A stretch of 64,000 nucleotides of DNA from an uncultured Muribaculaceae bacterium (GCA_964447275.1 CAYURI010000003.1:510-64509); one strand, 5' to 3'; numbered from the stretch's first letter, positions 4,087 to 23,682 are shown. Made by a program: numbers and translations. The notes: generated from the sequence alone by a model not told the origin.

Positions 4087-5958
4087 ATGCAAAAAAAATA
4101 TGAAGTAGTTGTTGTTGGTGGCGGCCATGCCGGCTGCGAAGCATCTTATGCATCAGCGACAAAAGGTCATCATACGCTGCTTGTAACTACAAATGTAAAT
4201 AATATTGCTGATATGCCGTGTAATCCTTCGATAGGTGGGACAGCGAAGGGAATAGTCGTTAGAGAAATTGATGCTTTAGGTGGAATAATGGGAAAAGTTG
4301 CTGATAGATCTCATTTTCAAATAAAAATGTTAAATGCTAAAAAAGGGCTAGCAGTAAGATCTCTGAGAGCTCAGGCCGATAAAAAAGTCTACCCTAAAGA
4401 AATGCTAAAAGCTTTAAAAAATTGCACTAAACTAGATATTTTGGAAGGAATAGTTACTAAGCTAGTCGTTGAAGATAATAAAATCAAAGGGGTAATTATT
4501 GATGAAAACCAAACAATCTTTTGCGATGCTGTGATCTTAACAACTGGAACTTATCTAAGATCTCAAATATTAACAGGTAGTAATAAAGTATCAAGTGGGC
4601 CTCATGGGGAAAAAACCTCGTCCTTTTTAAGTGATAATTTAAAGAGTTTAGGTTTTGAAATTTTAAGACTTAAAACCGGAACGCCACAAAGAATAGATGG
4701 TTCATCAATTGATTTTAGCAAAATGCAAGAAGAGTATGGTGATAATGAGTATTACACTTTTAGCCATGATAATCCACCACTTTATAAAATAGAAGAGCAA
4801 AAGAAATGTTACTTATTATATACTTCAAAAGAAACTCATGAGATTATTAAGAAAAACTTATCAAAATCCAGCATGTATGGCGGCTATGTTGAAGGAGTAG
4901 GACCAAGATACTGTCCATCAATCGAAGATAAAATAGTAAGGTTTAGTGATAAAGAGCGTCATCAATTATTTTTAGAACCAGAAAGCGCTTATTATGATGA
5001 ATGGTATTTACAAGGGTTTTCAACTAGTATGCCTCATGATATTCAAGAGAAAATGGTTCATAGTCTAAAAGGGTTAGAGAACGCTAAGATTGTAAAATAT
5101 GCGTATGCCATAGAATATGATGCGATAAATCCATTACAAATTAAAGCTTCGTTAGAAACAAAACTAATATCAGGATTATATACCGCTGGTCAAATAAATG
5201 GCACTAGTGGTTACGAAGAAGCTGCTGCTCAAGGTTTAATGGCCGGAATCAACGCGGCTTTAAAATTAGAAAATAAAGAGCCTTTAATATTAAAACGAAA
5301 TGAAGCTTATATTGGGGTTTTAATAGATGACTTAGTAACGAAAGGAACTAAAGAACCATACCGTTTATTGACATCAAGAGCTGAATTTAGATTAATACTA
5401 AGACATGATAATGCGGATTTAAGGTTAAGAGAAAAAGGGTTCTCAGTTGGTTTAATTGATAAGAAGAAATACAATATTTTTATAAAAAAGCGTGAATTAA
5501 TAAAAAAGACGATAGAGTTATTAGAAACGAATCAATTAAGTTTAAATAGAGCCAATATTGAAAAATTTAAAATTAAAAATGTCCTTATTCCTAAAGCTAG
5601 CGTTAAGTTTTCAGACTTATTAAAAAGACCAGAGATCAATATTTACTTTATTAAAGAATTCATCGATATAACAGATGATAAAGAAATTTTGGAAGAAGTA
5701 GAAATAAATATAAAGTATGCTGGTTATATTGAAAAAGCTTATAAAGAAGCTGAAAGAATGTTAAAGTTAGAAGAAAAGAAAATTCCTTTAGATATTGATT
5801 ATAATAAAGTAAAAAACTTAGCCAGCGAAGCTAGACAAAAATTAAAATTAATAAAACCAATATCAATTGGTCAAGCGAGCAGAATAAGCGGTATAAATCC
5901 AAGTGATATAGCTATATTGGCAGTTTATTTAAAGAAGGAGTATCCTCAAAATGACTGA
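4087..5958 (+). CDS. mnmG: tRNA uridine 5-carboxymethylaminomethyl modification enzyme MnmG (GidA)
   Basis: 623 aa. FAD-binding N-terminus VVVVGGGHAGCEA. Conserved synteny. Confidence 0.9.
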   Translation: MQKKYEVVVVGGGHAGCEASYASATKGHHTLLVTTNVNNIADMPCNPSIGGTAKGIVVREIDALGGIMGKVADRSHFQIKMLNAKKGLAVRSLRAQADKKVYPKEMLKALKNCTKLDILEGIVTKLVVEDNKIKGVIIDENQTIFCDAVILTTGTYLRSQILTGSNKVSSGPHGEKTSSFLSDNLKSLGFEILRLKTGTPQRIDGSSIDFSKMQEEYGDNEYYTFSHDNPPLYKIEEQKKCYLLYTSKETHEIIKKNLSKSSMYGGYVEGVGPRYCPSIEDKIVRFSDKERHQLFLEPESAYYDEWYLQGFSTSMPHDIQEKMVHSLKGLENAKIVKYAYAIEYDAINPLQIKASLETKLISGLYTAGQINGTSGYEEAAAQGLMAGINAALKLENKEPLILKRNEAYIGVLIDDLVTKGTKEPYRLLTSRAEFRLILRHDNADLRLREKGFSVGLIDKKKYNIFIKKRELIKKTIELLETNQLSLNRANIEKFKIKNVLIPKASVKFSDLLKRPEINIYFIKEFIDITDDKEILEEVEINIKYAGYIEKAYKEAERMLKLEEKKIPLDIDYNKVKNLASEARQKLKLIKPISIGQASRISGINPSDIAILAVYLKKEYPQND

Positions 5959-12941: not shown

Positions 12942-14195
12942 ATGCAAAAAATAATTATTAGTGGTCAGCATGAGCTAACCGGGGAAATAAAAATAAGTGG
13001 TGCCAAAAATAGTGCGGTAGCTTTAATACCAGCCGCAATATTAAGTGATGATGAAGCAAGTATTTTTAATGTTCCTAAAATTTCTGATATAGGAGCCTTA
13101 ACGGAAATCTTAGAAAAACTAAATTGTACTTGTGAGCTGGATAAAGACTCAATAAAGATAAACACTAAAAACATGAAAAATGCTTTAATAGAGGAAGAAT
13201 TGTCTTCTAAACTAAGAGCCTCTTATTATTTTATGGGAGCTTTGTTAGGTAAATTTAAAAAAGTAGAAATGTTTTTCCCTGGTGGATGTAGAATTGGCTC
13301 AAGACCAATTGATTTGCATTTAAAAGGGTTTGAAAAAATGGGAGCTAAGGTTATGACTTCCGGGACAGATAAATATGTAATTGAAGCAGAAAAATTAAAA
13401 GGGGCCAGAATATATTTGGACTTCGCTAGTGTTGGAGCAACTATAAATTTAATGCTAGCGGCAACCAGAGCTGAGGGTGAAACAGTTATTTCCAATGCTG
13501 CTAAAGAACCAGAAATAGTTAATGTTGCAACATTTTTAAACAATATGGGAGCACAAATATTTGGGGCTGGAACTAGTGAAATAAAGGTAATTGGCGTTGA
13601 CAAATTATCTGGTGGAATGATAGATGTTATCCCCGATCGTATTGAAGCTGGGACATATGTAATAATTGGTGCTCTTTTAGGCAAAAAACTTAAAATAACT
13701 GATATTATTCCTCTTCATATCGAATCTTTAACCTCAAAGTTAAAAGAAATGGGTGTAGACTTTGAAATAGATGAAAACAGTATTACTCTAAATAAGTGTG
13801 AAGAGTTAAAGCCAATAAATATAAAGTCTTTAATATATCCAGGGTTTCCAACAGATTTAGGGCAGCCAATGACAACATTATTAACCCAATGCTATGGCGT
13901 ATCTTTTTTTGAGGAAACCATTTATGAAAATCGTGTTGGTCATATTGAAGAACTGAATAAGATGGGAGCTAATATTAAAAATATTCAACCCAATGCCATT
14001 ATTTATGGTAAAACGCCCTTAAAAGGTTGCGAAGTGAAATCAACAGATTTAAGAGCCGGAGCTGCTTTAGTAATTGCTGGACTTATTGCTTCTGGCAAAA
14101 CAACAATAGATGATGCCGAACATATTTTAAGAGGTTATGAAAATATCGCCAAGAAATTAAAGGCTGTGGGAGCTAAAATAGAATTAAAAAATTAG
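12942..14195 (+). CDS. murA: UDP-N-acetylglucosamine 1-carboxyvinyltransferase
   Basis: 417 aa, EPSP-synthase fold. Active-site Cys in FFPGGCRIGSRPIDLH. Confidence 0.9.
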   Translation: MQKIIISGQHELTGEIKISGAKNSAVALIPAAILSDDEASIFNVPKISDIGALTEILEKLNCTCELDKDSIKINTKNMKNALIEEELSSKLRASYYFMGALLGKFKKVEMFFPGGCRIGSRPIDLHLKGFEKMGAKVMTSGTDKYVIEAEKLKGARIYLDFASVGATINLMLAATRAEGETVISNAAKEPEIVNVATFLNNMGAQIFGAGTSEIKVIGVDKLSGGMIDVIPDRIEAGTYVIIGALLGKKLKITDIIPLHIESLTSKLKEMGVDFEIDENSITLNKCEELKPINIKSLIYPGFPTDLGQPMTTLLTQCYGVSFFEETIYENRVGHIEELNKMGANIKNIQPNAIIYGKTPLKGCEVKSTDLRAGAALVIAGLIASGKTTIDDAEHILRGYENIAKKLKAVGAKIELKN

Positions 14196-14280
14196 TTGCC
14201 AAAAATAAAACTTATGCTATAATACACTAGGAAACAAATTACTATAACTAAATCTTAGTTATGGCGGAAGGAGAAAAATT

Positions 14281-14484
14281 ATGAAAAAGGGAATCCATCC
14301 AGAAATGAAAGAGACCACTTTTAAATGTGCTTGTGGAGCAACATTTAAGGCATTATCAACAAAAGAAAATGTGACTGTTGATGTTTGCAGCGAATGCCAT
14401 CCTTTCTACACTGGAACACAAGGGAAACACAAGAAAACTGGATCAGTAGAAAAGTTTAATAAAAAATTTGGCTTAAATAAATAA
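14281..14484 (+). CDS. rpmE: 50S ribosomal protein L31 (zinc-ribbon C+ form)
   Basis: 67 aa. CxxC...CxxCH motifs (CACG...CSECH). Confidence 0.9.
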
Positions 14485-14507
14485 ACTACTTTATAGTAGT
14501 TTTTTTA
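14483..14507 (+). terminator. rho-independent terminator after rpmE
   Basis: AAACTACTttatAGTAGTTT followed by TTTTTT. Confidence 0.7.
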
Positions 14508-14531
14508 TGCTATAATTTTATTGGTGATAAT

Positions 14532-15521
14532 ATGAAATATATTTTGCAAAGAATTATTAAGATGGATTATAAAAATTTCTTTATAACAATTAAAAAAATT
14601 AGTAAAAAAACAAAAAAACCGGTTATTTTAATTTTTTTAGATATTGTCTACACGGGAATAAAATTTAAAGCTGGATACATGGATTATTATTTATTAAAGA
14701 TGTATGAAATGAACAATAAAGAAAAATCTACTTATTTAGTAAGAGGCAAAAATAATGAATTAATTGAAAAACTGAACAAAAAAAGTGATATCCATCTTCT
14801 AAATAATAAAATTGAAACCAATAAATTATTATCTAAATATTTAAAAAGAAATTGGTCTTATTTAGATAATAAAAATATTAATAAATTTATTCGTAATAAC
14901 CCTAGGTTTATTGCTAAACCAAGTAATGGTCAATGCGGCAAAGGAATTGAAATAATTGATACCGCAAAATTTAAAAATAGTGAAGCCATTTTAGCTTACC
15001 TAAAAGAAAATAAGCTTGATTTATTAGAAGAAATTATTAAACAACACAAGTTGTTAAATAAGATAAATTCTAGCTCAGTAAATACTATAAGAATAGTTTC
15101 TATATATAATAAAAAAGTTTTCTATGTTGGGGCTTGCTTTAGAATTGGTAACAAAAAATTTGTTGATAATTTTGAAAGTGGTGGAATGACAGCCAAAGTT
15201 GATGTTGAAAGCGGCATAGTTTTAAGCCCGGCTATTGATAAAGCTGGCAACGTTTATTATAGTCACCCGGTTACTAAAACTAAAATTGAAGGATTTAAAA
15301 TACCTTATTATAAAGAAGCTCTAGATTTAATTGCTGATATGGCTAAATTAGTTCCAACCATCAGATATGTTGGATGGGATATTGCCATAACTGAGAGCGG
15401 GCCAGTATTAGTAGAGGCTAATCCTTTGCCGGGTTCGCAAATAACCCAGATGCCTTATCCTGGTGGTAAAAAAGAAGGTTGTCTACCTAAAATAAATGCG
15501 GCGCTAAATTATAAAATATGA
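14532..15521 (+). CDS. ATP-grasp enzyme of the sugar-transfer-associated / alpha-L-glutamate-ligase-related type
   Basis: 329 aa, ATP-grasp-like central and C-terminal regions (FIAKPSNGQCGKGIEII; VGWDIAITESGPVLVEANPLPG). Own promoter TGCTATAAT at 14507-14517. Confidence 0.5.
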   Translation: MKYILQRIIKMDYKNFFITIKKISKKTKKPVILIFLDIVYTGIKFKAGYMDYYLLKMYEMNNKEKSTYLVRGKNNELIEKLNKKSDIHLLNNKIETNKLLSKYLKRNWSYLDNKNINKFIRNNPRFIAKPSNGQCGKGIEIIDTAKFKNSEAILAYLKENKLDLLEEIIKQHKLLNKINSSSVNTIRIVSIYNKKVFYVGACFRIGNKKFVDNFESGGMTAKVDVESGIVLSPAIDKAGNVYYSHPVTKTKIEGFKIPYYKEALDLIADMAKLVPTIRYVGWDIAITESGPVLVEANPLPGSQITQMPYPGGKKEGCLPKINAALNYKI

Positions 15522-15546
15522 TAAAATATAAGTAGGATGTGATTAT

Positions 15547-16008
15547 ATGATAATTTCTATTGGAGCTGATCATTGGGGTATAGAAATGAAAAACTATATC
15601 ATTATGAATTTAATGAATAATGGGCTTGTTATCAATAATTATGGCCCTAATGAAAATAATGGCAAAAAAGTTGACTATGTTGATTATGCAATAAGAGTTG
15701 GCGAAGATATTAAAAATAATAATGCTGACTTTGGCATTCTTATATGTCGTACTGGAGTAGGAATGAGTATTGCTTGCAACAAAGTAAAAAGTGTTAGATG
15801 TGCAAAAGTTGATACTGAAGAAGAGGCTTATTTAGCAAGAACTGATGATAATGCCAATGTAATTGCCATAAGTAGTCAAAAAGACAAAGAAGAGGCTCTA
15901 ACAATTATTAGAACATTTTTAAAAACAAAATTTAGTTTAGAAGAAAGATACGTAAGAAGAGTTAACAAAATAAAGAGTTATGAGAATGGTCGTCATGGAG
16001 AATTATAA
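15547..16008 (+). CDS. rpiB: ribose-5-phosphate isomerase B (RpiB/LacA/LacB family)
   Basis: 153 aa. ICRTGVGMSIACNK motif typical of the RpiB family. Confidence 0.8.
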   Translation: MIISIGADHWGIEMKNYIIMNLMNNGLVINNYGPNENNGKKVDYVDYAIRVGEDIKNNNADFGILICRTGVGMSIACNKVKSVRCAKVDTEEEAYLARTDDNANVIAISSQKDKEEALTIIRTFLKTKFSLEERYVRRVNKIKSYENGRHGEL

Positions 16009-16195
16009 AGTATTTATTTATATAATTGTAACAATGGTTTCAGCTTTTGCTTTATCAGGAGTAAACTTTAATAATTTTTTTAAAAAAGAAAGAGTTGTCG
16101 AAGCAAAAATATTTGTTGTTTTAATTACACTTTCTTTAAGTTATTTAGCAAGCAATTTTATTATCAATTTTCTAGAAATAAGCAAAATAGTTTAA
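15980..16195 (+). CDS. small hydrophobic protein with two predicted TM helices (start uncertain: 15980, 15986 or 15995), overlaps 3' end of rpiB
   Basis: ORF-track 71-aa product with two hydrophobic segments. Followed by a terminator. Lies immediately upstream of the agr-like regulator. Confidence 0.35.
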   Translation: MRMVVMENYKVFIYIIVTMVSAFALSGVNFNNFFKKERVVEAKIFVVLITLSLSYLASNFIINFLEISKIV

Positions 16196-16202
16196 ATAAA
16201 AG

Positions 16203-16232
16203 TACAAAATTAGGATTTTGTGCTTTTATTTT
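16203..16232 (+). terminator. rho-independent terminator
   Basis: ACAAAATtaggATTTTGT followed by GCTTTTATTTT. An extended -10 TGTTATAAT follows at 16236-16244. Confidence 0.5.
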
Positions 16233-16270
16233 GTATGTTATAATTGCTATTAGTTAACACGGAGGCCATA

Positions 16271-16987
16271 ATGTTAAAAATCATAATTGTTGAAGATGAA
16301 GAAGAGATGCAAAAAAGAATAAAGCTAATTGTAATGAAAGCTTTATTCTCTAAAAATATTGAATTTCAAACTTATATATTCAAAAATTATAATGAGGAAT
16401 TAAAAAAACTTATTAATGATAACTCCCAGCCAAAAATTTTTCTTTTAGATATAGAATTGAAAAGAAGCATATCAGGAATAGATATAGCTAATATAATTAG
16501 AAAAGAAGATTGGGAAAGTGAAATTGTGTTTTTAACGAATCATGATAAAATGTTCGAAAAAGTTTATCGAACGATATATAAAGTTTTTGACTTTATTGAA
16601 AAGTATCACGATTTTGATAATCGCCTTTTAAAAGTTCTGAAAATTATAGTGTCTAACGGTCATGATAATGCGATGCTAAAAATTACTAACAAGAATATGA
16701 CACTGCAATTATATTATAAAGATATTCTTTATATCACAAGAGATACCATAGAAAGGAAACTAATTATTTATACGACAACTAATAAGTTTTCTTTATTGAT
16801 GCCAATTAGTAAATGTTTAGAAAACCTTGATGGTCGCTTTAAAATGGTCCATCGCGCTTGTATAATTAATTCTGATCGTGTTGCAAAATATAATTGGAAT
16901 AAAAAGTCTTTTGTTCTTGAAAATGGTGCAGAAATATTCTTACTTTCTAAAAAATATAAAGGGGTGATACAAGATGATAAGCGTTAA
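16271..16987 (+). CDS. agrA: AgrA-like two-component response regulator (REC + LytTR DNA-binding domain). ATG 16271 with SD GGAGG; the track ORF starts at TTG 16244.
   Basis: Receiver domain (IIIVEDEEEM...FLLDIEL) and C-terminal LytTR-type segment (ITNKNMTLQLYYKDILYITRD...HRACIINSDRV). Confidence 0.75.
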   Translation: MLKIIIVEDEEEMQKRIKLIVMKALFSKNIEFQTYIFKNYNEELKKLINDNSQPKIFLLDIELKRSISGIDIANIIRKEDWESEIVFLTNHDKMFEKVYRTIYKVFDFIEKYHDFDNRLLKVLKIIVSNGHDNAMLKITNKNMTLQLYYKDILYITRDTIERKLIIYTTTNKFSLLMPISKCLENLDGRFKMVHRACIINSDRVAKYNWNKKSFVLENGAEIFLLSKKYKGVIQDDKR

Positions 16988-18275
16988 ACATGTTTTGCAG
17001 TTTTTATTTGTTCTGATTAACGAAGGATTGATTTTTTATTTTGTTAATAAAGAATTAGAGACTAGAATAAAACTTAATCTTAAAGGCATCATCATTATTT
17101 TATTTGCTTCGCTTCTGATATCAATAAATAACATGTGTTCTGCTTTTGAGTTGAGGCTGATTGGCAATTACCTAATTGGGTTGTTAATGTTTGTTTCCTT
17201 AAAAAACGACTTTAAAAAGTCGGCTTTGTATTATTCGCTAATAATGCTTTTTGGTGTTCTCTCTGAGTTATTGCTATCGATAATTTTATCAATCTTCTTT
17301 TCTAGCATTACAAACTTAAGCTTTTGGATACAACCATTACTAATTATAGTTACTTACTTAGTTTGGTTCGGTGGGTGGTTTTTGTTTATTTCATCAAAAC
17401 GGGTAAAATATATTTTAAACAAAATAGAAAATAGTATAAATAGTATTTTTAGAATTGAAGTCTTGCTTATAGTTCTGTTTTTTATAATTGATGTTGTGGT
17501 AGTAGAGCATTATTTCAATCTAAAGGATCATCTTCTACTTTTAGCATCAATAATAGCCCTAAATCTCTTATTTATTTTAATTTTTATAATTTTAAAAAAT
17601 CGTCTAAGATTAAAAACTTTAGAAATATCTAATAACTATTTAAAGAACAATATTGACTTATATGAAAGAATTATTAAAGACCATAATATTATGAAGCATA
17701 ACTTAATTAGTGATTTAATGATAATTAAATCGGTAGCAAGCAGAAAAAGCCAAAAAATTATTGACGAGAAAATAAAATCCTATAAAGAAGGTTATAGCTG
17801 GATAAGCGATATTAATGGGCTACCCGAAGGATTAAAAGGGCTTATTTGCCTAAAAATAGTTGAAGCTAAAAACTTTGGCGTAGAATTAATATCAGAATGC
17901 TCCGGAGTTTGTAATTATAATATATCAAAGAGTTTATCAGCAAAGATCTATCTTGATTTATGCGAAAAACTAGATATTTTAATTGATAATGCAGTAGAAG
18001 CAGCATCCTTATGCCAAACAAAAGTTGTTGAAATAACAGTTAATACAACTAAAAACAAAAAAGTCACTATTGAGGTATCTAACCCATTTTTAAATGAAGT
18101 TGATTTTTCTAAATTTGGCAAAGAAGATAACTCTACTAAAATGAGAAATAGTGGGTATGGGTTATACTACATTTTGAAAAATAAAAGCAGTAAAATAAAA
18201 ACCAAGTTTGAAATTATTAACGATGTTTATATAGCTAGGATAACTGTCGATATAAAAAATATAGCTAATAAATAG
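16974..18275 (+). CDS. agrC: AgrC-like membrane histidine kinase (HPK10 family)
   Basis: 433 aa. ~6 N-terminal TM helices. H-box MKHNLISDLMII resembles the AgrC FKHDY box. N/G boxes DNAVEAAS and GYGLYY. Overlaps the regulator stop, so it is an operon. Confidence 0.75.
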   Translation: MISVKHVLQFLFVLINEGLIFYFVNKELETRIKLNLKGIIIILFASLLISINNMCSAFELRLIGNYLIGLLMFVSLKNDFKKSALYYSLIMLFGVLSELLLSIILSIFFSSITNLSFWIQPLLIIVTYLVWFGGWFLFISSKRVKYILNKIENSINSIFRIEVLLIVLFFIIDVVVVEHYFNLKDHLLLLASIIALNLLFILIFIILKNRLRLKTLEISNNYLKNNIDLYERIIKDHNIMKHNLISDLMIIKSVASRKSQKIIDEKIKSYKEGYSWISDINGLPEGLKGLICLKIVEAKNFGVELISECSGVCNYNISKSLSAKIYLDLCEKLDILIDNAVEAASLCQTKVVEITVNTTKNKKVTIEVSNPFLNEVDFSKFGKEDNSTKMRNSGYGLYYILKNKSSKIKTKFEIINDVYIARITVDIKNIANK

Positions 18276-18279
18276 CTAT

Positions 18280-18387
18280 ATTCTTTCTGATATTGATTTT
18301 GGGCATTTTGGTTCATCAACAAAGATTAATACTGACCACCAAGGAAGATCTTCTGCCAAAGCAACAATATTGTTAACAATATTCATA
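18280..18387 (-). CDS. agrD: AgrD-like autoinducing-peptide precursor (36 aa), not in ORF track
   Basis: Minus-strand ORF MNIVNNIVALAEDLPWWSVLIFVDEPKCPKSISERI. SD AGGAGA lies 7 nt upstream. It starts 14 nt after the agrB-like stop. The C-terminal tail EPK..PKSI resembles the AgrD recognition tail (staphylococcal DEVEVPKEL). A candidate ring SVLIF precedes it. Confidence 0.55.
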
Positions 18388-18401
18388 AATTATTCTCCTT
18401 T

Positions 18402-18989
18402 CTAAAACCAACGATTAAAAAGTTGGTTTTTATTTTTTAAATTCTTGCCCAGTAATTTATATGTTAATGGGCAAACAAGTATAGCTTGATATAAAAGAGA
18501 TAAGAATATAGTTTCTTTCATAAGCCAATTATTACTACTAATAATAACTATTAAATAAAGGCAAACAATCAAACTGATTATTGCTTTTCTTTTTAAATTT
18601 TTATCTTTATTTAAAAGTGGAATGTTTTTAGTTGGCGCTGGAGCAAAGCTAACGATTATTAAAGCGGAAATGAAAGATCCATATATTAAAATAAAATTAT
18701 TAATATCAATTAAGCTACACATGAGAGGTATTATGTTATACATGATTAAACTAGTAATCCAACATTGTAAGTTACTATTAGCGTGAAGGCCGAATCCCAG
18801 TGCTCTCAAAGGAATCATTAAGAATATTAATAACATAACCGATTTCTCAATTTTTAATAAAAAAGATATGAAAATAATGACAGCCAGTTTAACTAAAAAA
18901 GTATATAAGCATTCTAAGGCAAACTTCAACTTTATGTTTTCAAAGCAATTTAATTTTTTTAATAAACAACCAATTATTTTATCTCTCAT
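18402..18989 (-). CDS. agrB: AgrB-like membrane endopeptidase (AIP-processing)
   Basis: 195 aa, ~4-6 TM helices. RALGFGLHANSNLQCWITS matches the AgrB catalytic His/Cys region. Confidence 0.7.
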   Translation of the reverse strand: MRDKIIGCLLKKLNCFENIKLKFALECLYTFLVKLAVIIFISFLLKIEKSVMLLIFLMIPLRALGFGLHANSNLQCWITSLIMYNIIPLMCSLIDINNFILIYGSFISALIIVSFAPAPTKNIPLLNKDKNLKRKAIISLIVCLYLIVIISSNNWLMKETIFLSLLYQAILVCPLTYKLLGKNLKNKNQLFNRWF

Positions 18990-19106
18990 AAAATCACCAA
19001 AGCCAATTTTACTTTTAAAATACTTTTAGGGCTAGAATTTAGTTTAAAAAATAAAAACAACTGCTTTAATGATTAAATAATCAAGTTTTTGAAATAAAGT
19101 TCTCAC

Positions 19107-19138
19107 TTTTTAGACATCAAAATAGTGTTTTTAGACGT
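19107..19138. promoter_or_regulatory. direct repeats TTTTTAGAC(A/G)T spaced 21 bp start-to-start (LytTR-type binding-site geometry) between agrB-like and csp
   Basis: TTTTTAGACAT at 19107-19117 and TTTTTAGACGT at 19128-19138. Confidence 0.45.
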
Positions 19139-19194
19139 TTGTGTTAACTAAGAGCAAATAAAGATGTTAAAAGTTATTTATATGGAGGTGTATT

Positions 19195-19392
19195 ATGAGA
19201 GGAACTGTGAAGTGGTTTAATAACGAAAAAGGTTATGGTTTTATTTCTTATAAAGATTTTGATGATATCTTTTTCCATTATTCAGTTATTAATAAAAATG
19301 GTTATAAGACTCTTAAAGCTGGAACTGAAGTTGAATTCGAACTTGTTAAAACATCTAAAGGCTTACAAGCATTAAACGTTGTTGAACTATAA
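19195..19392 (+). CDS. csp: cold-shock protein (CspA family)
   Basis: 65 aa. MRGTVKWFNNEKGYGFI RNP motifs. Confidence 0.9.
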   Translation: MRGTVKWFNNEKGYGFISYKDFDDIFFHYSVINKNGYKTLKAGTEVEFELVKTSKGLQALNVVEL

Positions 19393-19442
19393 AGTAGTAT
19401 TTTCTTTTTTTAAGTGTTAAAATTATAGTAGGAGGATTGGAT

Positions 19443-19973
19443 ATGGAAATAAATATACGCAGTGAAAAGATGAAAACTACAGATGCAATAAAAAGCTATG
19501 CTATTGAAAAACTTTCTAAACTAGATCGCTATTTTGAAAAACCTGAGGAGATTACGGCAACCCTTTTTGTTAAAAAAATGCCTTTGGTAGAAAAGGTTGA
19601 GGTAACTGTTTTAACAAGAAAATACACATTAAGAGCCGAGGAGTGCCACGAGGATTTATATGCGGCTATTGACCTAGTAATTGATAAGCTAGAAGCGCAA
19701 ATTAGAAAAAACAAAAGTAAGTTTCAAAAAAGATATCAAGATGAAAAAACTCCGGATTTTAATTTTGATTTTGAAGCTGAAGAGGCTTCTAATGAACCAA
19801 AGATTGTTAAAAGAAAAAATATTGAAATAAAATTAATGGATGAAGAAGAGGCTATTCTGCAAATGAATTTACTTAATCATGATTTCTTCTTATTTAATAA
19901 TATAAAGGAGAATTGTTATTCAGTTATTTACTTAAGAAAAGATGGCGAATACGGAATAATTAATGCTAAATAA
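19443..19973 (+). CDS. hpf: ribosome hibernation promoting factor (long HPF). ATG 19443 with SD AGGAGG; the track start at 19437 is TTG.
   Basis: N-terminal sigma-54-modulation/YfiA fold (INIRSEKMKTTDAIKSYAIEKLSKLDRYF) plus a C-terminal dimerisation domain. Confidence 0.85.
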   Translation: MEINIRSEKMKTTDAIKSYAIEKLSKLDRYFEKPEEITATLFVKKMPLVEKVEVTVLTRKYTLRAEECHEDLYAAIDLVIDKLEAQIRKNKSKFQKRYQDEKTPDFNFDFEAEEASNEPKIVKRKNIEIKLMDEEEAILQMNLLNHDFFLFNNIKENCYSVIYLRKDGEYGIINAK

Positions 19974-19996
19974 AGAGTTTAAAACTCTTTTTTTTA
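19972..19996 (+). terminator. rho-independent terminator after hpf
   Basis: AGAGTTtaaAACTCT followed by TTTTTTTT. Confidence 0.6.
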
Positions 19997-20028
19997 TGTT
20001 ATAATATTTGAAGTGGAGGAACTGGCAT

Positions 20029-22527
20029 ATGGGAATATTAAGAAAATTATTTGATTCCGAATATAAAGAATTAAGTAGGTTTAATAAAATCGCTACACAA
20101 GTTATGGCTTTGGAAGAAGAAATGGCTAAATTAAGCGATGAAGAATTAAAAGCAAAAACTGATAAATTTAAAAAAGAATTAGAAAATGGCAAAACTCTAG
20201 AAGATATTTTAGTAGAAGCTTTTGCTGTGGTAAGAGAAGCGGCTTATAGAACAATAGTTGATAAACCGTTCTTTGTTCAAATTGTAGGTGGACTTGCTAT
20301 TCATTATGGTAATATCGCAGAAATGAAAACCGGCGAAGGCAAAACATTAACTGCAACAATGCCGGCTTATTTAAATGCTTTAACAGGCCATGGCGTACAT
20401 ATTATTACAGTAAATGAATTCTTGGCAAAAAGAGACTCTGAATGGATGGGGCGAATATTTAGGTTTTTAGGTCTAACAGTTGGTCTTAATGTAAGAGAAT
20501 TATCTCCAGCCGAGAAAAAAGGAGTCTATAATTCCGACATTGTTTATTCAACCAATAATGAAATAGGCTTCGATTACTTAAGAGATAACATGGTGGTAAA
20601 AAGGGAAGATAGAGTTCAAAGAAAATTAAACTTTGTTATTGTCGATGAAGTTGACTCGGTTTTAATTGATGAAGCAAGAACGCCATTAATTATTTCTGGT
20701 GGTAAATTTGACTCAGCCCAATTTTATATTGATGCTGATAAAGGTGTAAAAAGATTAAAGAACGAAACCGATTATACAATTGATGATAAAACCAGGAATG
20801 TTTCTTTAACTGAAGAAGGCGTAAAAAAAGCTGAGGAAATTTTTCATTTAAATAATCTTTATGACATTGATAACTCAGTATTAGTTCATCATATTAATCA
20901 AGCTTTAAAAGCTAATTTTGGTATGAAAAAAGATGTTGATTATGTCGTTGAAGGCGATGCTATTACAATTGTTGATCAATTTACAGGTAGATTAATGCAT
21001 GGTAGACAATTTAGTGAAGGATTGCACCAAGCAATTGAAGCTAAAGAAGGCGTAACTATAAACGAAGAAACCAAAACAATGGCAACGATAACATTCCAAA
21101 ACTTATTTAGAATGTACAATAAATTATCTGGTATGACCGGAACAGCAAAAACTGAAGAAGAAGAGTTTATTAACATTTATAATATGTATGTTATTCAAAT
21201 ACCAACCAATAAACCTGTTGTTAGAGAAGATTATCCTGATTTAGTTTATGCTACTGAAAAAGGTAAATATGCAGCAATAGTTAATAAAATTAAAGAAATT
21301 CATGAAGCAGGAGAACCTATTTTAGTTGGAACAATTTCGGTTGAATCAAATGAACATTTAAGTAATCTATTGGGTAAAGCAGGAATTCCTCATGAAGTAT
21401 TAAACGCCAAAAACCATGCTCGTGAAGCCGAAATAATTGCCAAAGCTGGCGAAAAGAAGTCAGTAACAATTGCTACTAACATGGCTGGCCGTGGTACAGA
21501 TATTAAACTTGGTGAAGGCGTAGTAGAGCTTGGCGGTCTTTATGTAATAGGAACAGAGCGTCATGAGTCAAGACGTATTGATAATCAGTTAAGAGGCCGC
21601 GCTGGTAGACAAGGCGACCCAGGTAGAAGTCAATTCTTTGTTTCTTTTGAAGACGATTTAATGAAACGTTTCGGTACGGAAAAAATCAAATTAATGATTC
21701 AAAGCTTAGGTATGCCAGAAACTCAAGCTATAAGTTCAAAAATGTTTACTAGAAGTATTGAGTCAGCTCAGAAGAAAGTTGAAGGTAATAACTTTGACAT
21801 GCGTAAAAATCTACTTGATTATGACGATGTTATGAACGAACAAAGAGAAATAGTTTATGCAAGAAGAAATGAAATTCTAGATAGCGAAGATATTCACAAA
21901 CGAATTTTAGAGACATTTATTAATGCTGTAGAATCTTTAGTAAGTAGTCACATACCACCAGAAGGATATTTAACTACTCATGATTATGAAGAGATATGCG
22001 AATTTGTTAACACCAACTATTTAAAAAATGGTAACTTAAAACTTGAGGAAATAGTTAATAAAAAAGAAGAAGAAACAATCAACATAATTAAAGAACATAT
22101 TAATAATGATTATGAAAATAAAATGTCTAAAATCCCTGAAGAAATGCGTAATGAATTTGAAAAGGCAATCTCACTTCGTATTATCGATAATAGTTGGGTA
22201 GAACACATAAGCGCTATGGAACATCTAAAAGAAGGCATTGGTCTTCGTGGTTGGAGTGGTGCTAATCCTTTGCAAGCTTATACTTTAGAAGGATTTAATA
22301 TTTTTGAAAAAATGTTGGACGAAATAGATACAAAAATCTCTGTCTTTCTATTAAAAGCTGAGATAAGAACTAACGCCAATATTGAAAGAAAACAAACCTT
22401 AAAAGGTAGTGCTAGCGATGGTAAAGAAAAAGTTAAAAGCACTCCAAAAAGAATTAACAAAATAGGACGCAATGAACTGTGCCCATGTGGTTCAGGGAAA
22501 AAGTATAAAAATTGTTGTGGAAAATAG
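20029..22527 (+). CDS. secA: preprotein translocase ATPase SecA (start ATG 20029, MGILRKLFD, SD GGAGG)
   Basis: DEAD-like motor motifs. C-terminal zinc finger CPCGSGKKYKNCCGK. Confidence 0.9.
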   Translation: MGILRKLFDSEYKELSRFNKIATQVMALEEEMAKLSDEELKAKTDKFKKELENGKTLEDILVEAFAVVREAAYRTIVDKPFFVQIVGGLAIHYGNIAEMKTGEGKTLTATMPAYLNALTGHGVHIITVNEFLAKRDSEWMGRIFRFLGLTVGLNVRELSPAEKKGVYNSDIVYSTNNEIGFDYLRDNMVVKREDRVQRKLNFVIVDEVDSVLIDEARTPLIISGGKFDSAQFYIDADKGVKRLKNETDYTIDDKTRNVSLTEEGVKKAEEIFHLNNLYDIDNSVLVHHINQALKANFGMKKDVDYVVEGDAITIVDQFTGRLMHGRQFSEGLHQAIEAKEGVTINEETKTMATITFQNLFRMYNKLSGMTGTAKTEEEEFINIYNMYVIQIPTNKPVVREDYPDLVYATEKGKYAAIVNKIKEIHEAGEPILVGTISVESNEHLSNLLGKAGIPHEVLNAKNHAREAEIIAKAGEKKSVTIATNMAGRGTDIKLGEGVVELGGLYVIGTERHESRRIDNQLRGRAGRQGDPGRSQFFVSFEDDLMKRFGTEKIKLMIQSLGMPETQAISSKMFTRSIESAQKKVEGNNFDMRKNLLDYDDVMNEQREIVYARRNEILDSEDIHKRILETFINAVESLVSSHIPPEGYLTTHDYEEICEFVNTNYLKNGNLKLEEIVNKKEEETINIIKEHINNDYENKMSKIPEEMRNEFEKAISLRIIDNSWVEHISAMEHLKEGIGLRGWSGANPLQAYTLEGFNIFEKMLDEIDTKISVFLLKAEIRTNANIERKQTLKGSASDGKEKVKSTPKRINKIGRNELCPCGSGKKYKNCCGK

Positions 22528-22586: not shown

Positions 22587-23682
22587 ATGGAACCAAGAGA
22601 ATTATTTAAAAAATATGAGGAATTAAGCAAAAAAATAAATGATCTATGGAGGTTACTTTGACTTAGACAATAAACTAAGCGAGGTAGCCATTATTAAAGT
22701 TGAAATGAGTGCTCCTGGTTTTTGGGATGATATTGAGAATGCTAATAAAAAAGCAGCAAGATTATCGCAATTAGAAAAAGATTTAAATAAATACCAAGTT
22801 TTATTATCAAGATTAGAAAACATTAAAGATATTCTACTTATCGAAGATCCTAGTTTAGTAGAAGAATCGTCTAAAGAACTAATAGAAATTGAAAAAGAAA
22901 TTGAAAGCCTGGAAGTAAAAGTTTACCTTGGTGGTAAATATGATAACACCGATTGTTATCTAGAAATTCATCCTGGAGCAGGTGGAACAGAATCTTGTGA
23001 CTGGGCTAATATGTTAAAAAGAATGTATTTGAGATTTTGCGAAAAGAATAATTATAAAGCTGAAATAATTGAGGAACAAGAAGGCGAAGAAGCAGGCATA
23101 AAAAGTGTTACTATTTTAATTAAGGGTGACTATGCTTATGGTTACTTTAAAGGCGAAAAAGGTGTTCATCGTTTGGTTAGGATATCACCATTTGATTCTA
23201 ATGCCAGAAGACATACTTCTTTTGCTTCAGTTACAATTACACCAGTTTTTGAAGACGCTAAAGAAGTCGAAATAAAAGAAAAAGATTTAAAAGTCGATGT
23301 TTTTCATAGCAGTGGAGCAGGTGGGCAAAGTGTAAATACTAGTGATTCAGCAGTTCGAATAACCCATTTACCAACTAAACTTGTAGTTAGCTGTCAAACA
23401 GAAAGAAGCCAACTCCAAAACAAGGAAAGAGCCATGGATATGCTCAAAAACAAACTATATGAATTAGAACTTGCCAAGCATGAAGAATTTATGAAAGAAT
23501 TAAAAGGCGAGAGTGCTAGTATTAATTTTGGTAGTCAAATTAGAAATTATGTTTTAGAACCATATACTTTAGTTAAAGATAGCCGTACTGGATATCAAAC
23601 TGGTGATGCCTTAAGGGTTTTAGATGGTGATATACTTAATTTTATGGAAGCTTATTTAAAGTTTAAGGAGAAAAATGAATAA
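22587..23682 (+). CDS. prfB: peptide chain release factor 2 with programmed +1 ribosomal frameshift (frame 0 from 22587 ends at TGA 22659-22661; frame +1 continues from 22660)
   Basis: MEPRELFKKYEELSKKINDLWRLL* is followed in the +1 frame by DLDNKLSEVAII... The slippery site is GGAGGttaCTTTGAC (SD-like, then CUU UGA C). GGQ motif SGAGGQSVN is present. Confidence 0.9.

Follow-up and report, generated by a model that had tools for sequence, protein, structure and literature searches.

The window analysed here is a 64-kb stretch of DNA (64,000 nucleotides; GCA_964447275.1, CAYURI010000003.1:510-64509). Our subject is an agr-type peptide quorum-sensing locus within it, made up of agrA and agrC on the plus strand and of agrB and agrD on the minus strand. 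All positions are those of the whole stretch, and the gene list was drawn from six-frame open reading frames (ORFs) together with the raw sequence. The features of the locus are these:

16271-16987, plus strand: agrA, response regulator with REC and LytTR domains, 238 aa
16974-18275, plus strand: agrC, polytopic HPK10-type histidine kinase, 433 aa
18276-18386, minus strand: agrD, predicted autoinducer precursor, 36 aa
18402-18989, minus strand: agrB, AgrD-processing membrane cysteine endopeptidase/cyclase, 195 aa
19107-19136, minus strand: candidate binding site of AgrA (LytTR), a perfect pair of 9-bp direct repeats
18254-18286, no strand assigned: AT-rich palindrome, candidate bidirectional intrinsic terminator over both stop codons
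16236-16244, plus strand: possible extended -10 element (TGtTATAAT) for agrA-agrC, read off the sequence

All four ORFs are full length, and the ORF list shows no frameshift in any of them. The two plus-strand genes overlap by 14 nt, and the stop codon of agrC (TAG, 18273-18275) directly abuts that of agrD (18276-18278, minus strand). There is no spacer between them (0 nt), and the gene pairs are therefore convergent, tail-to-tail. An earlier note on this DNA had placed the four agr components here and had described them as a peptide signalling locus of convergent agrA-agrC and agrB-agrD units. Both claims are borne out, by the ORF list, by Pfam for AgrA, AgrC and AgrB, and by orthology for AgrD. 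Two details of its layout are wrong: it called the arrangement head-to-head, whereas the geometry is the convergent one given in its own title, and it had agrD ending 2 nt past the kinase stop, where the two stops in fact abut. The locus is a genuine four-gene agr-type system, old and fixed in position in a lineage of RF39-like Bacilli.

The membrane protease, the kinase and the regulator

Relatives of the locus were collected by a profile-guided scan for AgrB, keeping one genome per species. This found 322, and synteny and taxonomy were taken from the best 80; individual related loci are referred to below by L numbers.

AgrB matches the Pfam family PF04647 with 87.7 bits (cut-off 23, E=8.3e-25), covering profile positions 3-181 of 185. 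Its His69 and Cys76 are invariant, both in an alignment of 11 homologues and in one of 99 orthologues. In S. aureus AgrB the catalytic pair is His77/Cys84, also 7 residues apart. Searched against PDB sequences, AgrB had no meaningful match. Close homologues are few: the nearest, from L168, is 66% identical, and all others are 41% identical or less. AgrB of the window and AgrB of L168 both read APAPTKNIP in a loop that elsewhere is 99% conserved as APADTK.RP. This APAPT-type loop occurs together with an AgrD leader that is unusually short, and the two may be the outcome of co-evolution between enzyme and substrate within a sublineage.

For AgrC, the Pfam family HATPase_c_5 (PF14501) matches with 32.5 bits (cut-off 22), and the best PDB sequence matches are to S. 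aureus AgrC (4bxi and 6e52). His242, the histidine of MKHNLISDL, is at least 95% conserved among 70 orthologous kinases, and Asp338/Asn339 of the N-box and Gly394/Gly396 of the G-box (GYGLYY) are likewise conserved in the orthologues. The N-terminal sensor (residues 1-210) has about 6-7 membrane spans, the hydropathy segments lying within residues 1-206. Pairs of orthologues are on average 18% identical in the sensor half and 33% in the kinase half; a sensor so much more variable than its kinase is typical of agr specificity regions.

AgrA matches Pfam Response_reg (PF00072) with 39.5 bits and LytTR (PF04397) with 36.7 bits, and its Asp9, Asp60 and Lys111 are at least 95% conserved in an alignment of 75 orthologues. 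A PDB sequence search with AgrA found generic receiver domains and ComE (E=0.006), and nothing else. The gene starts at the ATG at 16271, with GGAGG just before it; a longer ORF that begins with TTG at 16244 is less likely to be the one used. The H-box, the GYGLYY motif and the AgrB His/Cys motif that the earlier note quoted are all real, and all lie at positions conserved in the orthologue alignments.

The predicted signal and its regulatory DNA

The product of agrD, MNIVNNIVALAEDLPWWSVLIFVDEPKCPKSISERI, is 36 residues long and carries the conserved C-terminal tail DEPKCPKS. The ORF was likewise found by gene finders run independently on two other assemblies. About 80 related loci have an ORF of 25-41 aa at this place, flanked by agrB and the end of agrC. 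In these orthologous peptides the leader is variable, the hydrophobic core is hypervariable, and the tail, DEPx[M/C]P[K/E]SL[I/L]K, is conserved. TIGR04223, the family of AgrD cyclic lactone autoinducer peptides, matches 35 of 40 representatives (best E=3e-9), and PF05931 matches 21 of the 40. The window peptide aligns with its orthologues across the ring and the DEPxCPKS tail, and it is best read as AgrD by positional orthology, the family hidden Markov models (HMMs) being blind to the peptide itself.

The residue six before D-E-P is Cys in 64 of the 81 orthologues, Ser in 11 and Thr in 6. In the window it is Ser18 (WW-S-VLIFV-DEP), which thus stands at the position of the ring nucleophile. 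Since Ser18 aligns with the ring Cys of most of the orthologues, the predicted autoinducer is a lactone closed through Ser18, with a ring of either five residues (SVLIF) or six (SVLIFV). Several of the Ser-type peptides (those of L038, L067, L079 and L080) contain no Cys at all, and there Ser must therefore be the nucleophile. In L168, the sole close relative found, the peptide is MNIIALIEDLPWWSVLIFVDEPKCPKVISKKI, with a core, LPWWSVLIFVDEPKCPK, identical to that of the window. A ring of five residues is the size found in most agr systems. A ring of six is described for C. acetobutylicum ([CVLVTL]), and Ser lactones are documented for S. pseudintermedius, for C. difficile AgrD2 (NSA[SSWVA]) and for GBAP (PMC12312760).

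In the AgrD peptides of L014, L016, L017, L030, L058 and L082, Thr stands at the position of the ring nucleophile, as for example in STFTWWLLADEPECPKSLLK. We know of no characterised Thr-lactone autoinducer, and these peptides may either have a new ring chemistry or carry their nucleophile elsewhere.

The 205-bp intergenic region between agrB and csp contains two perfect copies of TTTTTAGAC (19107-19136), which read GTCTAAAAA on the agrB strand. The 9-bp boxes are separated by a 12-bp spacer, giving a period of 21 bp from start to start, and they begin 147 and 126 nt upstream of the agrB ATG. They are the sole perfect pair in the window. A core TGTC[T/A][A/T]AA, again with period 21 and at about -146 to -158 from the agrB ATG, is found in L004, L011, L014, L030, L058, L078 and others, and L168 keeps the proximal box. 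A period-21 repeat (at least 8/9) is present in 26 of 81 orthologous intergenic regions, against 0-6 for any other period from 12 to 33. The length of the intergenic region varies from 187 to 370 nt, and the position of the repeats is fixed relative to agrB (about -150) and not relative to csp.

Similar repeats were looked for at other places. Upstream of agrA there is no period-21 repeat in the window, and only 2 of 65 relatives have one; nor does the repeat pair recur elsewhere within the locus of each relative (+/-8 kb). Looser pairs (up to 3 mismatches) occur six times elsewhere in the window against 3.3 expected, which is not significant, and no further target can be called. The repeat pair has the architecture of a site for a LytTR regulator, and its placement suggests that phosphorylated AgrA (AgrA~P) would feed back on agrBD only.

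In L011 and L030 a TATAAT or AATAAT lies 14-16 nt downstream of the proximal box and faces agrB. On the other side of the locus, agrA-agrC is preceded by the terminator hairpin of the DUF1146 gene (16194-16231) and then by TGtTATAAT (16236-16244), from which we infer that this unit probably has its own promoter.

The palindrome at 18254-18286 gives on the minus strand a stem of 14 bp with a U run behind it (-14.4 kcal/mol, z = -5.4), and on the plus strand a stem of 10 bp with UCUUUCU behind it. It is plausibly a terminator shared by the converging operons and working in both directions. A scan for consensus terminators between agrC and agrD found nothing, the palindrome having been missed because it has only 2 G-C pairs. 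We had considered long overlapping antisense transcripts in the window; these were dropped once folding revealed the palindrome at the stop codons. The hairpin is absent from L011, L014 and L030. The gap between agrD and agrC, measured in 70 loci, is between -12 and 241 nt long, with 37 nt as the median. An Rfam scan of 14000-20200 at E<=1 returned the L31 leader and chance-level matches, and no RNAIII-like or csp-leader RNA.

Synteny, lineage and descent

The best 80 of the 322 AgrB relatives all come from metagenome-assembled genomes of uncultured gut Bacilli, 'Tenericutes' or 'Mollicutes', and include Ca. Coprosoma, Ca. Faecenecus and Ca. Faecimonas. Gilroy et al. place those three genera in the order RF39, with genomes of about 1.4-1.7 Mb and about 28% G+C (PMC8035907). 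The shared gene order, with arrowheads for direction, is secA<, hpf<, csp<, agrB>, agrD>, <agrC, <agrA, then after an interval (DUF1146<), rpiB<, rpmE<, murA<. The site and the orientation of the cassette are constant in 80/80 of these genomes, wherever the contig is long enough. The nearest SecA relatives of the window are 73% identical. Pairwise identities of the agr proteins correlate with those of SecA, with Spearman rho values of 0.64 for AgrA, 0.53 for AgrC and 0.44 for AgrB, the control Hpf giving 0.80.

The earlier note had proposed a different history, in which the agr genes, an ATP-grasp gene, rpiB and a gene for a protein with two transmembrane segments form a single inserted stretch of about 4.5 kb between rpmE and csp, accessory and possibly acquired horizontally. 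As a single unit the stretch does not hold together, since the relatives, too, have rpiB and DUF1146 next to rpmE in conserved synteny, and the ATP-grasp gene is shared with L013; the module proper is the agr cassette alone, of about 2.9 kb. A recent acquisition would sit well with the scarcity of close AgrB homologues and with the agr loci, in several layouts, that are annotated on Clostridium plasmids. It would sit well too with six RF39-like metagenome loci (L093, L094, L110, L119, L120 and L121) that lack the cassette between rpiB/DUF1146 and hpf. Against it stand the identical cassette, orientation and flanks in the best 80 species genomes, the correlation with SecA and the base composition, the cassette having a G+C of 0.22-0.29 and the flanks 0.26-0.34 with no step between them. 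Searches of plasmids and phages found no close copy, the distant homologues there being at most 32% identical, and the ORF list contains no mobility ORF and no integrase, tRNA-type or repeat boundary. We therefore regard an acquired island as very improbable, and the proposal as largely refuted.

The comparison of the rpmE-csp interval, which the earlier note had suggested as a check, gives a constant cassette in the best 80 relatives, and variable presence at a deeper level. An unbiased scan of metagenomes, anchored on Hpf, turned up about 15 RF39-like loci that carry the cassette and about 6-7 that do not, these being the six named above plus L109. The loci without agr have agr-positive loci as their nearest SecA neighbours, with L121 reaching 86-87% SecA identity to agr-positive loci. 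Because they are nested in this way among agr-positive loci, loss is favoured, and the simplest reading is vertical descent with occasional loss. L109 was rejected as a clean empty site, as it holds an AgrB-like ORF of 148 aa in the opposite orientation (4880-5326).

Several loci depart from the common arrangement in other ways. In L105 (3636-5923) agrA-agrC lies directly beside csp, with no room for agrBD, and in L101 (530-1575), L107 and L007 (180-1172) an extra or orphan LytTR regulator lies beside csp. The csp gene next to agrB is present in tandem duplicate or triplicate in L018, L024, L036, L044, L054, L057, L065, L072, L075 and L103. Loci without agr are often without csp too (L094, L110, L119, L120 and L121).

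The interval upstream of agrA also varies. In the window agrA directly follows DUF1146 (16196-16270), without a block of about 3 kb that relatives carry between agrA and DUF1146 and that encodes GT4, MreB/Mbl and M23 peptidase proteins (for example L005, 3296-6120). A gene of the ATPgrasp_ST type (sugar-transfer-associated ATP-grasp) lies at 14532-15521, between rpmE and rpiB. Of the loci mapped, L013 alone carries a homologue there, 43% identical, and it is therefore the ATP-grasp gene, not agr, that is the patchy element of the interval. If the DUF1146 ORF is taken to start at its first ATG, it shares 29 nt with the end of rpiB (15980-16008); its true start may be a downstream ATG, at 15986 or 15995.

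Known systems and a working model

The S. aureus agrBDCA system, a P2 operon with a thiolactone signal and RNAIII, has proteins in the same four roles as the locus here, and resembles it in the seven-residue spacing of the AgrB His and Cys, in its HPK10-type AgrC and in an AgrA made of REC and LytTR domains. A further likeness lies in direct repeats of 9 bp separated by 12 bp, which are the presumed AgrA site here. The S. aureus AgrA box is ACAGTTAAG, and the window box, GTCTAAAAA, differs from it. The locus further differs from that of S. aureus in having two converging units instead of one operon, repeats at agrBD only, and Ser in place of Cys in the ring; identities are only about 25-30%, and the NCBIfam equivalog cut-offs are missed. 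Nor is there room for, or any sign of, a divergent effector of the RNAIII type, the divergent neighbour being csp, 205 bp away, and Rfam finding no such RNA. Judged by their sequences, AgrA, AgrC and AgrB are members of the agr families and agr-like in their predicted working, and are not equivalogs of the staphylococcal ones.

In C. acetobutylicum the agrBD and agrCA units run in the same direction, and the ring is a Cys thiolactone, unlike that predicted here. Like the locus here, it has separate agrBD and agrCA units, and its 6-residue ring matches the C/S-x5-DEP spacing found here (PMC12312760, PMC3754575). Separate agrBD and agrCA operons have been reported in clostridia (PMC12312760).

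The closest precedent in gene order is C. difficile agr2, which has the order agrA, agrC, agrD, agrB, and in which agrA-agrC behave as a transcription unit (PMC3754575); its ring nucleophile is Ser (PMC12312760). The texts consulted give the gene order of agr2 and not the strand of agrD and agrB. Unlike the window cassette, which is fixed across an order-level clade, agr2 is strain-variable and is present in about 86-88% of isolates. A Ser nucleophile giving a lactone is found also in the autoinducing peptide (AIP) of S. pseudintermedius, RIPT[STGFF], and in E. faecalis GBAP (fsr). These belong to unrelated lineages and have other gene orders, agrBDCA and fsrABDC respectively, and the GBAP ring has 9 residues. 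The departure from the agrBDCA order that the earlier note pointed out is therefore real, and it has precedents, both in agr2 (PMC3754575) and in the split operons of clostridia (PMC12312760). The two convergent units, the boxes at agrBD only, the lack of an RNAIII-like partner, the Ser nucleophile and the box sequence are none of them unprecedented as a kind, and the locus is not a new kind of system.

The reading that we prefer, and consider probable, is that this is a functional agr-type quorum-sensing system of two converging units, vertically inherited at a fixed chromosomal site in RF39-like Bacilli. In this model, a promoter lying about 100-120 nt ahead of agrB would drive agrB-agrD. 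AgrB, by means of His69 and Cys76, would cut off the C-terminal tail of AgrD, VDEPKCPKSISERI or DEPKCPKSISERI, and cyclise the remainder through Ser18 to the SVLIF or SVLIFV lactone; a second protease would trim the N-terminus, and the peptide would be released. The variable polytopic sensor of AgrC would bind the peptide, leading to autophosphorylation of His242 and transfer of the phosphate to Asp60 of AgrA. Binding of AgrA~P to the two GTCTAAAAA repeats upstream of agrB would then raise agrBD transcription, giving a positive feedback that acts on signal production only. The agrA-agrC unit would be expressed from its own promoter, probably constitutively, and both units would terminate at the common palindrome over the abutting stops.

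Some of the results weigh against this model. The best NCBIfam match of AgrA, to the AgrA model NF046049, scores 40.1 bits against an equivalog cut-off of 400; AgrB scores 97.1 bits against NCBIfam AgrB PRK01100, where the cut-off is 282; and an NCBIfam search with AgrC gave no match. In the family-HMM check that the earlier note had called for, AgrA, AgrC and AgrB lie above the Pfam thresholds, and the 36-aa peptide matches none of the AgrD models (Pfam, NCBIfam, TIGR04223, PF05931) at E<=1. Six residues of AgrB, at positions 23, 84, 119, 122, 131 and 187, differ from the clade consensus where that consensus is nearly invariant (at least 92% conserved); Pro119, for one, replaces an Asp found in 99% of the orthologues. 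In the regulatory DNA, the window has no convincing -10 hexamer downstream of the repeats, the repeat pair lies 59-88 nt upstream of the csp ATG and could serve csp, and in L016, L032 and L043 the orientation of the pair is reversed and its distance to agrB shorter, so that the promoter geometry proposed above is provisional.

The AgrB substitutions, with the D-to-P change in the APADT motif, and a peptide that has a short leader and fails both AgrD HMMs, are what one might expect if the copy in this genome were a decaying, non-functional relic of an ancestral system of the clade. However, the four ORFs are intact, as are the AgrB His/Cys pair, His242 and Asp60, and the perfect repeat pair is still present. 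L168, although its AgrB has diverged by 34%, carries the APAPT variant too and has an unchanged AIP core, which points to purifying selection acting on a co-adapted pair. A relic is thus highly unlikely.

It is also unlikely, though less so, that the locus is intact and serves some purpose other than sensing the density of its own population. The peptide might mainly block the receptors of competitors, AgrC-AgrA might mainly sense peptides of other strains or species, or the repeats might chiefly control the divergent csp-hpf operon, with a link to cold shock or ribosome hibernation. The hypervariable ring and sensor across the clade recall cross-inhibiting systems, and L105 has agrA-agrC without agrBD, L109 a short AgrB-like ORF only. 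However, the four cognate genes are kept together in nearly all loci, a pattern that self-signalling would favour. Control of csp would agree with the nearness of the repeats to that gene, which adjoins agrB in every agr-positive locus; against this, the distance that is kept is the one to agrB.

A further extension of the model is unlikely in our view. In it, an ancestral agr would have stayed welded to csp-hpf-secA through the whole RF39 radiation, and what it chiefly controls would be the passage into dormancy at high density, by way of the cold-shock protein, the ribosome-hibernation factor and possibly sporulation. If this were true, the predicted Ser-lactones, and in some species Thr-lactones, would be species-specific cues with which to manipulate or cultivate RF39-like organisms.

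AIP loci have been mined at scale across human-microbiome genomes (PMC11953309), and a literature search found no paper linking RF39 with agr. On the model that we prefer, of a working and vertically inherited agr circuit, an uncultured gut lineage with small genomes has kept every part of a peptide quorum-sensing circuit, at one constant site of its core genome. What the model predicts is concrete: as signal a lactone with the ring SVLIF or SVLIFV, and as DNA target GTCTAAAAA-N12-GTCTAAAAA; either can be made synthetically. For genome annotation it is relevant that the family HMMs miss the 36-aa AgrD, which only synteny identifies, and that the approximately 80 orthologous peptides are a ready alignment for better AgrD models.

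It is worth adding two observations on genes outside the locus. Upstream of rpmE, at 14242-14273, the L31-Firmicutes leader (Rfam RF03156) scores 31.7 bits, just under its gathering score of 33.3. At the start of the prfB ORF (22639-23682), CTTTGAC follows GGAGGA (22648-22662); this is the classic programmed +1 frameshift site of release factor 2 (RF2), and the listed prfB ORF therefore lacks the first approximately 25 codons, which lie in a different frame.

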